Shown here in pieces: positions 5,028 to 9,706 of a stretch of DNA of 44,333 nucleotides. The translations under genes and the position numbers were made by a program. The stretch's first letter is position 1. Each line of letters opens with the position of its first letter. Source of the stretch: a virus (taxonomy: Duplodnaviria; Heunggongvirae; Uroviricota; Caudoviricetes); the IMG/VR virus record IMGVR_UViG_2909246061_000002, positions 1 to 44,333 of that record; one strand, given 5' to 3'. Below the pieces are notes generated by a model. It was given only the letters and a program-made list of their open reading frames with translations, was not told the origin of the DNA and did no database searches.

Positions 5028-5996
5028 TTAGTAGGTTATTTTTGTTGCGAATACTTCGCCTTTTACGATGGCTGTTATGATATTTTTAGCAACATCTTCT
5101 GATGCGCCAACCTTGATAAGGTCAGCAAGTATTTTGTTATTTACTTCTTTCCGGTGAGCTTTATCCTTTGCTCTACGCTCTTCTTCGTCCTTGATTCTTT
5201 TTTCTTCTGCTATTCTGGCTTGCTCTTTTGCTTCAGCCTCGCGCCGGATTCGTTCAGCCTCCTCCTGTGCTTTTCGGCGTTCTGCTTCAATTGCCGCCTG
5301 CTTTTCTCTTTCAGCTCGTTCTGCTGCCTCTTTTGCTTCGCGCAGTGCTCGTTGCTCGGCTTCAATGCGTTCACGCTCTGCACGTTCCGCTGCGGCCTTA
5401 GCTTCTGCTTCTCGCCTTGCTGCTGCTTCAATTTCGGCTTTTGCCTTTGCTTCGGCTTCTGCTCTGGCTTTCTCTTCAGCTTCTCTTTTTAAGCGTTCTT
5501 CATGCTCTCGCTTTTCCTGCTCCGCTTTGAGTCTTGCCTCTTCTCTTTGGCGGTCAAATTCGCGATCCATCAAAATCGCTATTTCATGGTCAGACTCAAT
5601 TTGCTTTGCGAGAGCTTCAGCTGCTGCCTTAGCTTCTTCTTCGGCTTTAATCCGCGCCTGTTCTTCCTCATAATCAGTAAGAGGCTGGCGCGCCTTGGCT
5701 TTCAGTTCATCAAGGCGATCACGCACTGTCTTGCGGTTGGCATCAATTAGCTTTGGAATTTCCTTCAGTTCAGCAACAAGGTCTTTGCCAAGACCATCGA
5801 GATATGTTTTCGTCTGCGCAACTTTATACGCCAGAGAAGCGATCTCCTTTCTGCCCTTTGCCGTTGTGATATCAGGCACAAATGACATAACTTCACGTTC
5901 AACCTTTTGAAGGATTTCTTCAATCTGGTCGGCAGACTGAAATACAGTCATTGCATTTGCTTTTTCAATAACAACTAAATCTGTTACTTCACTCAT
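5028..5996 (-). CDS. coiled-coil E/A/K/R-rich phage protein (DUF1351-like), 322 aa
   Basis: ATG at 5996 with GGAGG RBS (the ORF-track start at 6050 is upstream of the RBS); long charged helical repeats; sits beside the Sak4 module. Confidence 0.6.
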   Translation of the reverse strand: MSEVTDLVVIEKANAMTVFQSADQIEEILQKVEREVMSFVPDITTAKGRKEIASLAYKVAQTKTYLDGLGKDLVAELKEIPKLIDANRKTVRDRLDELKAKARQPLTDYEEEQARIKAEEEAKAAAEALAKQIESDHEIAILMDREFDRQREEARLKAEQEKREHEERLKREAEEKARAEAEAKAKAEIEAAARREAEAKAAAERAERERIEAEQRALREAKEAAERAEREKQAAIEAERRKAQEEAERIRREAEAKEQARIAEEKRIKDEEERRAKDKAHRKEVNNKILADLIKVGASEDVAKNIITAIVKGEVFATKITY

Positions 5997-6169
5997 ATAT
6001 CCTCCGTCAAAAAAATTGCCCTCACACTGGAGGGCAAAGAAGATTTCCAATAATCAGAACAAGTCGGCTCCTGTTTAGTTACGAGCGACATTGCTCCGTG
6101 TATTCACTCGTTGGAATGAATACACAGTGCTGTGTTTATTCTGTTGTTAGTGCCAAAAATAAAGGCCGA

Positions 6170-6862
6170 CTATGCGGACTCGGAAGGAAGTCCAATCATC
6201 TTATTCAAATCTTCTACCCGTAAAGCAGGAAGTGCTGTACTTGCTTTATCTGCTTCTTTTGGTAGCAATTCTTTGCTTTCAGGCCAAACTTCAATAAGTC
6301 GCTTAACTGTTGTGACTGAGTTCAAAGCAGCCCATACATTTGATTCGATATCCTTTTTCTTGGCTTCAAGTTTTTGTTGCAATGCGCAGATTTCATCAAA
6401 CCTTTTTGTTATTTCGTGTTCTGCGTCAAACATGCATTTATCTTTGGTCGGAGTAGGGAGCAATATATCTTCGCCGTTGCCGTCTTTCCCATATGAAAGC
6501 CATCCAACCCTTCTGCCAGATACAGTCAGATAAATTGAAGTAGAACGAACATCGTATGAGTAAAATGAACATCCCATCTTTCCAAGTTCTTCACTTATAG
6601 CTACCAACTTGGATGATAACTGATCCACTTCCTCAGTTTTCTTTTTACCGCCAAACGCAATAACTCTGGCGTCAAGTGCAAGCTGGTTCTTTAACTTTGT
6701 TACTTCTTCAAGTTCAGTGAAAACCCCAGACTTAATTAAAGCGTTACGAGCGATTTCCTCTTTCATTCTCGTAGTTAAGCGGATTGATGACATATTAATT
6801 CCTCTCAAATAAGTGGCTTGCTGCCAAAACAATGAACCATCCGGAAATTCCAGATAGTTCAT
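6170..6862 (-). CDS. hypothetical early-left protein, 230 aa (alternative start 6793 with GAGAGGA RBS)
   Basis: Long ORF; ATGA overlap with upstream ORF at 6859..6862. Confidence 0.5.
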   Translation of the reverse strand: MNYLEFPDGSLFWQQATYLRGINMSSIRLTTRMKEEIARNALIKSGVFTELEEVTKLKNQLALDARVIAFGGKKKTEEVDQLSSKLVAISEELGKMGCSFYSYDVRSTSIYLTVSGRRVGWLSYGKDGNGEDILLPTPTKDKCMFDAEHEITKRFDEICALQQKLEAKKKDIESNVWAALNSVTTVKRLIEVWPESKELLPKEADKASTALPALRVEDLNKMIGLPSESA

Positions 6863-7086: not shown

Positions 7087-7359
7087 TTACCTGGCTGTCA
7101 GTTGTTTTGATTTCCGGTATCCTGCCGCGTAAATGGCTACGTTCGGAAGACAAGTTGAACCTTCATATTTTCTGGTCAACGTTGTCAGAGTTATCACTTC
7201 TGCTCTCATTGCTGGTTTGCGCTTGCATTGCAAGACCACTCGTGAAGGGGTTGGCCTGTGTAGCTTGTCAGAGCTGATCGCCTCCTGACTTTGCAGATTT
7301 GCACGACGAGCTCTACGGCGAGAAGCTGCGGTTCCTTTAAATTCTGTTTTTCTGGACAT
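7087..7359 (-). CDS. N-like transcription antiterminator (arginine-rich motif), 90 aa
   Basis: ATG at 7359 with GGGAGG RBS; N-terminal RRRARRA arginine-rich motif; C-terminal YAAGYRKSKQLTAR resembles what I recall of P22 gp24; directly downstream of a boxA/boxB nut site. Confidence 0.7.
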   Translation of the reverse strand: MSRKTEFKGTAASRRRARRANLQSQEAISSDKLHRPTPSRVVLQCKRKPAMRAEVITLTTLTRKYEGSTCLPNVAIYAAGYRKSKQLTAR

Positions 7360-7457
7360 AGATTCCTCCCGAATAAACTTTGGCGATGCAATCTCGAAGC
7401 CCCTCCTGAGACGGTTGCTTCGGCATTGCATCCCACAGCTTATGTGGTTGGGTGATC

Positions 7458-7640: not shown

Positions 7641-7814
7641 GATTGCAGGAATTTATCAGAAGGAATAAAGAGACTTGAGGGGGATCAGAATTGCGCGTTT
7701 TAGTGAGTTGTATCTGTTTATTTTTCAACAAATACAATTGGTTATGGTGTTATTAGGTGTGGGGATCGTGAGGCAAAGAAAACCCGGCACTGAGGCCGGG
7801 ATGTGAGGAATTAA

Positions 7815-8000
7815 TTACAGAGCAAAGAGATCACGCATTAGGTTGCTGTTCATCTGGTGGTTGAATTGATACGGCTCCAGTTCTTTTTTGATCTCGTTCA
7901 GGTGCTGTTCCGCTTTTCTTGCCAGATTGCGACTTTCTTGGATCTGGCTTTCCAACATTTTGTTGAGAATTTCCATCTCCGGTTGCAGATTCTTCGGCAT
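7815..8000 (-). CDS. small helical protein, 61 aa, overlapping the 3' end of the protease-like gene in another frame
   Basis: ATG at 8000 with AAGAGG RBS 9 nt upstream; protein-like helical sequence; frame opens only 42 nt upstream. Confidence 0.5.
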   Translation of the reverse strand: MPKNLQPEMEILNKMLESQIQESRNLARKAEQHLNEIKKELEPYQFNHQMNSNLMRDLFAL

Positions 8001-8835
8001 TAGTATTGTCCTCTTTATCTTGTGTAGTAAGAGGGAAATCCATCACCCTTGGTTTTCCAAACGTTGGGATTTCACCACTATGAATCTTATCACAGAAAAA
8101 ATTATCGAGTATTTCTGTTATACCTTTAGGACATTCAACACACTTGAAAAGTTCCTTGGCTTCTTTTCTGTCGATAACAAATCCATGTGAAGGATACGAA
8201 GCGATGAGTTTGCTTAACGCCCCTTCTTTTAGACTACTTGGCTTGTCTGCTAACCGTTGACCATAAGTGATAGCAATGCTCATCGCACGCTGATGCTCAC
8301 CAAGTTTTATTGGATCTATCTGAGCAGCCATGGGGGCTATCAATGCCTCTGTAAGTCTGGTTGCGATGTCAGCAGATATTTTAGTGCTTATCTGGTTTTC
8401 GTATTTTATCTGAACAAGGTATGAGTTAAACGCTGAAATAGAGCGCTCCTTCAGTGCATCGAGAGCTGTCATAATGGCTAAACCAGAACTCATCTCACCT
8501 ATTTCATCGTTTTTTTTCAGTTGGATATCTAATGGCCCGAGCTCACCCATGTCACCGATAACAAGTTTATTCGCAGCTATGGCTATTAGTGTACCAGCAC
8601 TTTTGCACGGCCCAACAACTAAAAGTGTTACCGTTTCATAATAGTGCTGGAGAGCCCTACCTATACGATAACCAGCATTAGGATCACCGCCATAAGTAGC
8701 AACACAGAAGATAACATTCTTTTTTAATTCATTTTGTGACTTACGCTTCTTGATTTTATTGGTTAGATCAAGATAACCATCACGATGAATATCGCCTATA
8801 TACACATAAACATCATTATTTTCAATAGTATTCAT
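7831..8835 (-). CDS. Clp-fold (ClpP/SppA-like, SDH-type) serine protease-like protein, 334 aa
   Basis: ClpP/SppA-like motif GDPNAGYRIGRALQ...VVGPCKSAGTLIAIAANKLVIGDMGELG with candidate nucleophile Ser; low-complexity C-terminal tail; AT-rich gene 166 bp downstream of cI on the same strand. Confidence 0.65.
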   Translation of the reverse strand: MNTIENNDVYVYIGDIHRDGYLDLTNKIKKRKSQNELKKNVIFCVATYGGDPNAGYRIGRALQHYYETVTLLVVGPCKSAGTLIAIAANKLVIGDMGELGPLDIQLKKNDEIGEMSSGLAIMTALDALKERSISAFNSYLVQIKYENQISTKISADIATRLTEALIAPMAAQIDPIKLGEHQRAMSIAITYGQRLADKPSSLKEGALSKLIASYPSHGFVIDRKEAKELFKCVECPKGITEILDNFFCDKIHSGEIPTFGKPRVMDFPLTTQDKEDNTNAEESATGDGNSQQNVGKPDPRKSQSGKKSGTAPERDQKRTGAVSIQPPDEQQPNA

Positions 8836-9001
8836 TCGTTAAACTCCCTGTTGTGGTTACGATGAATGTATTCATGTTGAGGATAAGACATAGTGGTTTG
8901 TCATCATCGCTAATCTGGCGCAATTGACTTTTCATAAATCACAATTGGAATCACCCAAACGTCTCTTCAGGCCACTGGTTACCAGCTACGTGACGATGAA
9001 G

Positions 9002-9706
9002 TCACGAATTTTTCAGCCACTCCCTTGCCTCGATGTCATCCAGATGGCGAGATTGCTTCAGAATACCAGCCACATACTCCACCTTTGCTACTTGATGATA
9101 AGGCAACGTTATTGGCCTATGGTCCTGGTTGATGCTTGTAAACTGGTATTCTCCGTCTCTGTCATAGCCAAGAACTTTGATCATGTTGTGTCCTTCAACG
9201 GTTCTGACAAACACCTCATCACCCGGGAATACTTTGGTGTTAGGCTCAATGAGTACATATTCTCCTGATTTTATTCTGGGCCACATGCTGTCTCCTTTCA
9301 CACGAAGACCAAAGGCATCTGGATCATCGCTATAAATCTTGAGCCACCCATCGCGCTCTTCGGTCATCTCGATGGCACCATCAACACCAAGAATTGCCTC
9401 ACCAACCACGCGCACTAACCCTTTTCTTACCTGACCGACAAAAGTTAAAGAATCTGAGCATGATGCAATTGGTGTTACATCATGTACCAAATCAAGCCAC
9501 CCATTAGGTAACCCAAGTGCGGCTTCGAATTTTCTTGCTAGTTTATCCCCTATGTTTCGAGTGCTTTTTTCACCGGAGACTTGCGTGAGTTGAGAAGGGC
9601 TAACTCCAAGCTTATCGGCAAAGCTTGCATTAGTGTTACCCGCGATTTTTTTATGCTCATCTAGCAAAAACGCCAGATTCGATTTGCGAATATCTTTGTT
9701 TTCCAT
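9002..9706 (-). CDS. cI: CI-like prophage repressor (HTH plus LexA-type S24 peptidase domain)
   Basis: 234 aa; N-terminal HTH region, C-terminal S24-like autocleavage domain (GDSMWPRIKSGEYVLIEP); divergent from a cro-like gene. Confidence 0.85.
   Translation of the reverse strand: MENKDIRKSNLAFLLDEHKKIAGNTNASFADKLGVSPSQLTQVSGEKSTRNIGDKLARKFEAALGLPNGWLDLVHDVTPIASCSDSLTFVGQVRKGLVRVVGEAILGVDGAIEMTEERDGWLKIYSDDPDAFGLRVKGDSMWPRIKSGEYVLIEPNTKVFPGDEVFVRTVEGHNMIKVLGYDRDGEYQFTSINQDHRPITLPYHQVAKVEYVAGILKQSRHLDDIEAREWLKNS

Follow-up and report, generated by a model that had tools for sequence, protein, structure and literature searches.

A probable second gene overprinted on the disordered tail of a ClpP/SppA-fold protease in the immunity region of a lambdoid prophage

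Overlapping genes are already known in phages, the classic case being the out-of-frame embedded pair Rz/Rz1 of phage lambda, and the pair of reading frames described here is a further instance. It lies on the minus strand of a 44,333-nt stretch of Caudoviricetes DNA (IMG/VR record IMGVR_UViG_2909246061_000002, positions 1 to 44,333; hereafter the window), where an open reading frame (ORF) of 61 aa at positions 7815-8000 runs in the +1 frame over the 3' end of a gene for a predicted serine protease of 334 aa (7831-8835). The small ORF begins with an ATG at 8000-7998, ends with a TAA at 7817-7815 and encodes MPKNLQPEMEILNKMLESQIQESRNLARKAEQHLNEIKKELEPYQFNHQMNSNLMRDLFAL. A Shine-Dalgarno (SD) sequence, AAGAGG, is found 9 nt 5' of this ATG (8010-8015), inside the protease coding sequence, where it is read as K-E-D codons. 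The protease itself stops at a TGA at 7833-7831, so that 170 nt (7831-8000; protease codons 278-334 plus stop, small-ORF codons 1-56) would be read in both frames. A sequence-only reading of this stretch had described a 61-aa ORF with an AAGAGG ribosome-binding site, overlapping 56 codons of a protease-like gene in another frame, and its coordinates, sequence and AAGAGG site proved correct, the overlap amounting to 56 protease codons plus the stop. We consider it likely that 7815-8000 is a real, unannotated gene that overprints the disordered tail of the protease in the +1 frame, and that the two genes form a cassette. Ribosomes would initiate independently at the internal AAGAGG-N9-ATG to produce a single-helix protein of coiled-coil type, and those coming from the protease ATG would translate these 170 nt into an unstructured, hydrophilic tail.

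The pair resembles Rz/Rz1 in that the small gene carries its own SD sequence and ATG and is set, in the +1 frame, across the 3' portion of a larger, co-oriented gene. A single mRNA presumably serves for the translation of both, and the two products plausibly act together. Unlike in Rz/Rz1, the small ORF is not fully embedded and extends 16 nt beyond the protease stop. Moreover, the overlapped part is a predicted disordered tail and not a functional domain, the extent of the overlap varies from ~4 nt to ~190 nt across the family, the small protein lacks a lipoprotein signal, and the pair is unrelated to spanins in sequence and function.

Two other described systems are close to this locus. The first comprises the self-compartmentalising serine proteases SppA (signal peptide peptidase A, MEROPS S49) and ClpP, which share with the window protease a predicted core of the ClpP/crotonase type; its best structural matches are Bacillus subtilis SppA (4kwb, 3rst) and ClpP. 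The window protease differs in lacking a membrane anchor and in having ~170 extra helical residues, a 60-aa disordered tail and a paired gene for a small helical protein. According to the deposited title of 4kwb, the C-termini of SppA lie in its own active sites and are self-processed, which may offer a precedent for a functional tail and is taken here as a lead only. The second comprises the abortive-infection genes rexAB of lambda and bstA of the Salmonella phage BTP1, which occupy the same slot in the same orientation, that is, after cI and before the terminator, OL/PL and N. The cassette in the window differs from them in consisting of a protease and a coiled-coil peptide and in showing no similarity to PADLOC defence models.

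Codon-position variation in the overlap

To compare the two frames, we employed 27 prophage loci from IMG/VR in which the protease is complete, four Escherichia coli loci and one Aeromonadaceae locus, which together yielded 17 distinct sequences; the proteases of the IMG/VR and E. coli loci are 58-100% identical to that of the window, and those of the 17 distinct relatives 58-90%. A +1 ORF of 60-61 aa is kept in every complete locus of this set. Divergence was calculated as the mean pairwise nucleotide divergence per protease codon position from a MAFFT codon alignment, as one of the loci (L104) has indels. In clade g1, the core of the protease (residues 1-250) shows values of 0.089, 0.033 and 0.412 for positions 1, 2 and 3, respectively, and the residues just ahead of the overlap (251-277) show 0.208, 0.154 and 0.439. 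Within the overlap, the values are 0.236, 0.105 and 0.105. The synonymous sites of the protease thus lose three quarters of their variation (~4-fold) once the overlap is entered, and variation now peaks at protease position 1, i.e. the third position of the small ORF. This switch in periodicity was replicated in two more subclades, with a chi-square p of ~1e-16 against the core in each of the three. The comparison of codon positions across homologues, proposed by the sequence-only reading as a check, therefore came out in favor of the small ORF, the periodicity moving into its frame at the overlap.

The individual substitutions follow the same pattern. Among the 54 substitutions in the g1 overlap, 30 are silent in the small ORF and change the tail, against an expectation of 15-21% (a ~3-fold excess), and the reverse class, silent in the tail and changing the small ORF, comprises 8 against 23-27% expected (binomial p = 8.7e-6). 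The ratio of the two classes is 30 to 8, to be compared with ~0.43 to 0.57 as expected. For a second clade, g2, the counts are 17 and 7 (binomial p = 0.0067). At the protein level, the mean pairwise identity is 0.50 for the tail vs 0.62 for the small ORF. Residues E8, Q19, L26, L41 and Y44 of the small protein are invariant and its L-E-P-Y-Q motif is near-invariant, and the tail frame across this motif varies (TGAVSIQPP, VGAIPIQQP, TGTIPSEQP, AGTLPTDES). At residue 278 of the protease, an Asn in the window, Asp or His occurs in relatives. The conservation extends to the C-terminus of the small ORF, which has a conserved acidic-x-aromatic-x-hydrophobic end and stops 7-28 nt beyond the protease stop in the close relatives. 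A conserved long tail over an unconserved small ORF would look different; what we found is the opposite. Taken together, these substitution patterns point to purifying selection on the small-ORF frame. Selection would act chiefly on the sequence of the small protein, and on the tail chiefly for an open, hydrophilic frame.

The product of the small ORF is predicted by AlphaFold2 (AF2) to be a single long helix spanning residues 3-60, with a mean predicted local distance difference test (pLDDT) score of 86. Inspection of its sequence shows hydrophobic residues at a spacing of 3-4, resembling the heptad pattern of coiled coils. Nine database proteins match the small ORF, eight of which are full-length 61-aa calls. 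A metagenome protein from ENA (P0129, 55 aa) is chimeric, as its first 28 residues correspond to the small ORF and the remainder to the protease-tail frame; this would reflect a 1-nt indel or a sequencing error within the overlap in that sample. In a further locus (L099; IMG/VR UViG_2907888185_000007), the protease ORF is interrupted, leaving a frame of 175 aa, and the cassette has likely been pseudogenised.

A sister clade of prophages from Morganella, Proteus and Rahnella (L006, L007, L123-L131) encodes a protease of ~50% identity. Here, a distinct +1 ORF of 56-58 aa (MTIEIMELSRNL...) lies over the tail and shows the same codon signature (p = 1.5e-7). Between L006 and L007, the small ORF is 44% identical, as compared to 27% for the tail. 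The SD sites of this clade are weaker than those of the window clade.

The protease tail and the origin of the overlap

The AlphaFold model of the protease shows a confidently folded core of about residues 1-270, followed by a tail (residues 271-334) that is predicted to be disordered, with pLDDT values of 31-41 and without secondary structure. The impression of a low-complexity tail next to a helical small protein, gained earlier from the letters alone, is thus borne out by both models. Matches of the protease to curated profiles remain under their cut-offs, with 26.6 vs 31.3 bits for PF01972 and 34.1 vs 250 for NF047768, and the ClpP profile models likewise match only below cut-off; the annotation by the NCBI pipeline PGAP and precomputed Pfam labels nonetheless use the name of an SDH protease. 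The protein belongs to PHROG 21683 (E 3.8e-172), a family whose label carries no function, and a sequence-profile search of the PDB with the protease gave no matches. A Foldseek search with the AF2 model, in turn, retrieved SppA (4kwb, 3rst) and many ClpP chains with a probability of 1.0 and E values of ~1e-4, at modest TM-scores of 0.37 and 0.51. As judged from this model, the core adopts a ClpP/crotonase-type fold. Ser79, within the sequence CKSAGT (motif G-x-C-K-S-A-G), is invariant across 28 homologues, as are several His, Lys and Asp residues, and is a candidate for the nucleophile. About 1,570 homologues of the protease exist, most of them 320-340 aa long with a hydrophilic tail that is not conserved in sequence; long tails of this kind recur across most family members.

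We asked how far the openness of each frame is predicted by the other one. When the small protein is held fixed and its codons are resampled, only 0-1.3% of trials leave the protease frame free of stops across the overlap (P 0.000-0.013); the corresponding P(open) of the small-ORF frame, given the tail, is 0.43-1.0. In fact, none of the 17 distinct relatives has a stop in the protease frame over this stretch, and the frame is likewise open in the sister clade. Furthermore, our own arithmetic from the expected fractions of the substitution classes predicts ~5 changes in clade g1 that create a stop in the tail and are silent in the small ORF, beside the 30 that change the tail, and none was seen. 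The protease frame never gains a stop, which argues that the tail is really read and that something selects for its continuity. The reason might be a role of the disordered extension or an effect on translation. The substitution and resampling data together suggest that the stretch is probably dual-coding.

These data bear on the view that only the small ORF matters and that the tail is functionless read-through after a lost stop, tolerated because it is disordered. The low pLDDT of the tail is what such a view expects, and so is its lower conservation compared with the small ORF, in the close relatives as well as in the sister clade; in addition, a good part of the distant homologues lack a tail (see below). 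It does not account for a frame that is open in every relative where resampling would rarely leave it so, for the missing stop-creating changes in g1, or for the long hydrophilic tails in most of the family. We therefore regard it as unlikely. The sequence-only reading had raised a related option, namely that the annotated C-terminus of the protease is an artefact of a lost stop: the artefact part is not supported, as the frame is open and maintained, and the part concerning the stop is, as distant proteases are found that end near the equivalent of position 8000.

The latter emerged from a survey of 64 distant loci from many phyla, in which positions were counted from the conserved ...VID motif of the protease as an anchor. 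A second ORF on the same strand, with a median length of 65 aa, is present in 52 of the 64. It starts +145 to +168 nt and ends +334 to +372 nt from the anchor (interquartile ranges), and the protease stop spans +150 to +405 nt. In 25 of the 64 loci the tail is short and the protease stops near the start of the small gene; in 19 of these 25 the small gene lies largely 3' of the stop, with overlaps that are either absent or between 4 and ~70 nt, and in one locus (L120) it was a called gene. Whether homologous proteases end near this point, a further question of the sequence-only reading, can thus be answered in the affirmative for many distant homologues, whose small gene is then separate or barely overlapping. 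Relative to the protease, the second ORF of the distant loci lies in either the +1 or the +2 frame; it begins at a start codon of its own, and in some cases the two genes share the 4 nt of an ATGA. One subfamily of the small protein, with the motif QMDKAxxFARM, is non-overlapped in L052 and L039 and overlapped in L027, L036, L050, L071 and L030, and a profile built from six of its members recovers the seventh at the expected place (E = 5.6e-6). The most economical explanation is that a protease plus a small downstream gene was the original cassette, and that the protease stop then moved 3'-ward in many lineages. A separate small gene 3' of a shorter protease would thereby have been covered gradually.

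Initiation signals and further alternatives

Alternatively, the small ORF might be a non-translated by-product of a stop-poor hydrophilic tail with a chance ATG. For the +1 frame to contain a stop, a T is required at position 2 of a protease codon, and T is almost absent from this position in the hydrophilic tail, so that the frame is open by construction. The length of the ORF was accordingly dropped as evidence, since the openness of the +1 frame is expected from the composition of the tail, and the case for the gene rests on the substitution patterns instead.

Several observations weigh against the reading of the small ORF as a gene. Resampling the codons of an unchanged tail protein leaves the +1 frame open in 43-100% of cases and places an ATG at the start site of the small ORF in ~63%. 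PGAP leaves the ORF uncalled in all four E. coli genomes. Searches of Pfam, NCBIfam, PHROGs and PADLOC with the small protein returned sub-threshold noise alone (MSP7_C, Smac, Sec2p, PqiB), and a profile search with the small-ORF alignment against 1.84 billion representative proteins gave four matches, all of them the same gene. An hhalign comparison of the small ORFs of the window and sister clades yielded a probability of 2.5%, i.e. no detectable homology, and a hidden Markov model of the enterobacterial small ORF run against six-frame translations of 89 distant loci found only Aeromonadaceae and Klebsiella relatives. As the profile of the window clade misses the ORF of the sister clade, the second gene can be regarded as homologous family-wide on the basis of its position, not of its sequence; the small ORFs of the two clades may be dissimilar because they diverged very fast or because overprinting took place independently. 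Shared ancestry is ignored by the chi-square and binomial p-values, which overstate independence, although three subclades and the sister clade agree. Among distant relatives, the upstream neighbour is an S24 repressor in only 10 of 71. Finally, translation of both products in the overlap is something that we infer from the patterns of change.

Even so, a mere by-product would leave much unexplained: the 4-fold loss of third-position variation and the periodicity in the phase of the small ORF in three subclades and the sister clade, the ~3-fold excess of changes silent in the small ORF alone, a conserved SD site at the right spacing, the jump in +1 identity at the ATG, and a C-terminus conserved 7-28 nt beyond the protease stop. 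We judge this explanation very unlikely.

The initiation signals deserve a closer look. In most of the 17 relatives, GAGG, GGAG or GGGG is found 7-10 nt 5' of the aligned ATG, even where the protease residues differ. The amino-acid identity in the +1 frame is 0.38 over the 15 codons that precede the ATG and rises to 0.87 over the 15 that follow it, and 7 of the 17 sequences have a +1 stop at most 15 codons 5' of the ATG. No slippery heptamer is conserved among the 17 sequences, isolated matches occurring in two of them only. The identity jump, the upstream stops and the lack of a conserved heptamer argue for independent initiation and not for a frameshift fusion, and the inner gene thus appears to have its own translation-initiation signals.

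Programmed ribosomal frameshifting, as known from dnaX and lambda G/GT, would instead fuse the protease core to the helix. The helix frame does follow the core on the same strand, and some relatives (e.g. L003) have a +1 frame without stops over more than 30 codons 5' of the ATG. Set against this are the +1 stops and the low identity upstream of the ATG, the unconserved heptamer, the conserved SD site and ATG, and the distant second ORFs, which occur in either the +1 or the +2 frame with their own start and sometimes an ATGA overlap; frameshifting is therefore highly improbable. To an RNA or DNA element as the cause of the low variation (a structured 3' end, an extension of the terminator or a regulatory site near OL) we give scarcely any weight, because, for all that the stretch lies directly 5' of the terminator and operator region, it shows a strict three-base periodicity in the small-ORF phase over ~170 nt, its constraint follows amino-acid conservation with synonymous variation, unlike that of an RNA structure, and a fold of 7755-7830 gives the terminator hairpin only and is overall not significant (z = -1.06).

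The preferred reading thus remains that of two genes, each translated from its own start. A two-component module with both frames translated, as the sequence-only reading had offered as its first option, fits the selection signature, the conserved SD site and ATG and the open protease frame.

The repressor-adjacent slot and a possible function

The minus strand of the window contains a lambdoid immunity region in the order cI, protease, small ORF, terminator, OL/PL and N. The cI-like prophage repressor (9002-9706, minus strand) combines a helix-turn-helix (HTH) with a Peptidase_S24 domain (Pfam E 3.8e-16), is named a LexA family regulator by PGAP in an identical E. coli record, and would be the first gene of the lysogenic transcription unit. 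It is separated from the protease by a gap of 166 nt, which holds a Shine-Dalgarno-like GGGAG (8844-8848, minus strand) 8 nt 5' of the protease ATG; a terminator scan gave no terminator-like site between the two genes on the minus strand. An 18-nt hairpin (8989-9006, CGTGAC-N6-GTCACG) spans the cI stop codon. Since its T-run is on the plus strand only, it could end convergent plus-strand transcripts but not the cI transcript. Downstream of the cassette, a rho-independent terminator (CCCGGCCTCAGTGCCGGG + TTTTCTTTGC; 7773-7800, minus strand) follows 14 nt 3' of the small-ORF stop, formed by a stem-loop at 7800-7783 and a T-tract with a fold of -11.8 kcal/mol. It closes the unit of repressor, protease and small ORF ahead of OL/PL and N, and a hairpin with a T-tract is also found 3' of the small-ORF stop in most of the listed relatives. 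The operator/promoter region beyond the terminator resembles that of H-19B-type phages, and the N antiterminator is encoded at 7087-7431 (minus strand; Pfam N_peptide E 5.8e-32).

The region is 100% identical to a prophage of E. coli 5CRE51 (over 7760-8900). In this genome and three other E. coli genomes, PGAP annotates only an 'SDH family Clp fold serine proteinase'. None of the six records inspected, four from E. coli (RefSeq) and two from phages (GenBank), has an annotation for the small ORF. The two phages, the sole ones with a protease homologue among deposited phage genomes, are Klebsiella phage ST13-OXA48phi12.4 (L132, 2504-3499), where it stands beside a divergent XRE/ImmA pair, and the P2-like Burkholderia phage vB_HM387 (L133, 2408-3478), where it stands beside the integrase. 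The small ORF goes unannotated there despite a tblastn match at 75% identity. At the position of N in the 5CRE51 record (L001, 2328-2797), PGAP calls a 'hypothetical protein' and a 'frameshifted' pseudogene, and the N start and annotation of that record appear unreliable. Directly 3' of N, in the early-left operon, an ORF of 230 aa (6170-6862, minus strand) is a strong member of Nmad5 (Pfam E 5.1e-72), the family of nucleotide modification associated domain 5. Further along, an ORF of 340 aa (5028-6050, minus strand) is very rich in E, A, K and R with long runs of the EAKAKAEAEA type, and several long ORFs in other frames shadow it; an ORF of 322 aa at a similar position in L003 is labelled 'cell envelope biogenesis protein TolA'.

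The cassette is found directly 3' of the repressor and co-oriented with it in the window, in Klebsiella Rac-like prophages and in one Bartonella prophage. This is a slot of the rexAB/bstA type, after the repressor and before the terminator and the early-left operator. The interval between cI and N has been described as a mosaic hotspot that includes rexAB and bstA, the cargo of which presumably uses the repressor promoter (PMC8585504). In line with this description, the same cI allele (WP_000428098.1) and the same terminator/OL flank carry other cargo in E. coli prophages (L121, 3551-4892; L122, 3550-5013): a HigB toxin, an HTH protein and a 134-aa hypothetical protein in one, and DUF3024 with two hypothetical proteins in another. 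The cI-adjacent slot thus behaves as a cargo hotspot. More distant cassettes occupy varied contexts, e.g. with a P2-like integrase or an XRE/ImmA pair as neighbour. An action of the protease on the repressor was considered as a family-wide feature and dropped, as the S24 link is confined to the closer clades. The varied contexts together with the location in the repressor slot suggest a mobile accessory cassette expressed in lysogens. It would be co-transcribed with the repressor, as are lambda rexAB.

Neither protein has a match at E <= 1 in PADLOC-DB v2, and literature searches on SDH-, SppA- or ClpP-like proteases in connection with phages or defence found nothing on this module. Judging from the slot, the most plausible function is phage exclusion or abortive infection, with the helix acting on the protease as a regulator, adaptor or inhibitor; we put this forward tentatively. 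A broader proposal is that of a widespread, undescribed cassette, in which an SppA/ClpP-fold protease is combined with a fast-evolving coiled-coil partner of ~60 aa over which the protease stop has repeatedly slid, and which would serve lysogens as an anti-phage system, with the helix as sensor, inhibitor or adaptor, from the rexAB/bstA slot of lambdoid, Rac-like and alphaproteobacterial prophages. Taken as a whole, this proposal is possible at best and rather less than probable.

As long as the small gene goes uncalled, a cassette of two genes is counted as a single one in analyses of this prophage cargo. Mutations in the final 170 nt of the protease would affect two proteins, and knock-outs or truncations of the tail would be misread. 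The family also provides a natural series for the origin of an overlap, from separate genes through overlaps of 4-14 nt to ~190 nt, in which a disordered hydrophilic extension would have been laid over a pre-existing helical gene. Given its place in the repressor operon, a known hotspot of abortive-infection genes, the cassette is a candidate for a new function in prophage defence or lysogeny that is based on a protease; should it turn out to be a defence system, or should the history of a sliding stop hold true, its value would be greater.

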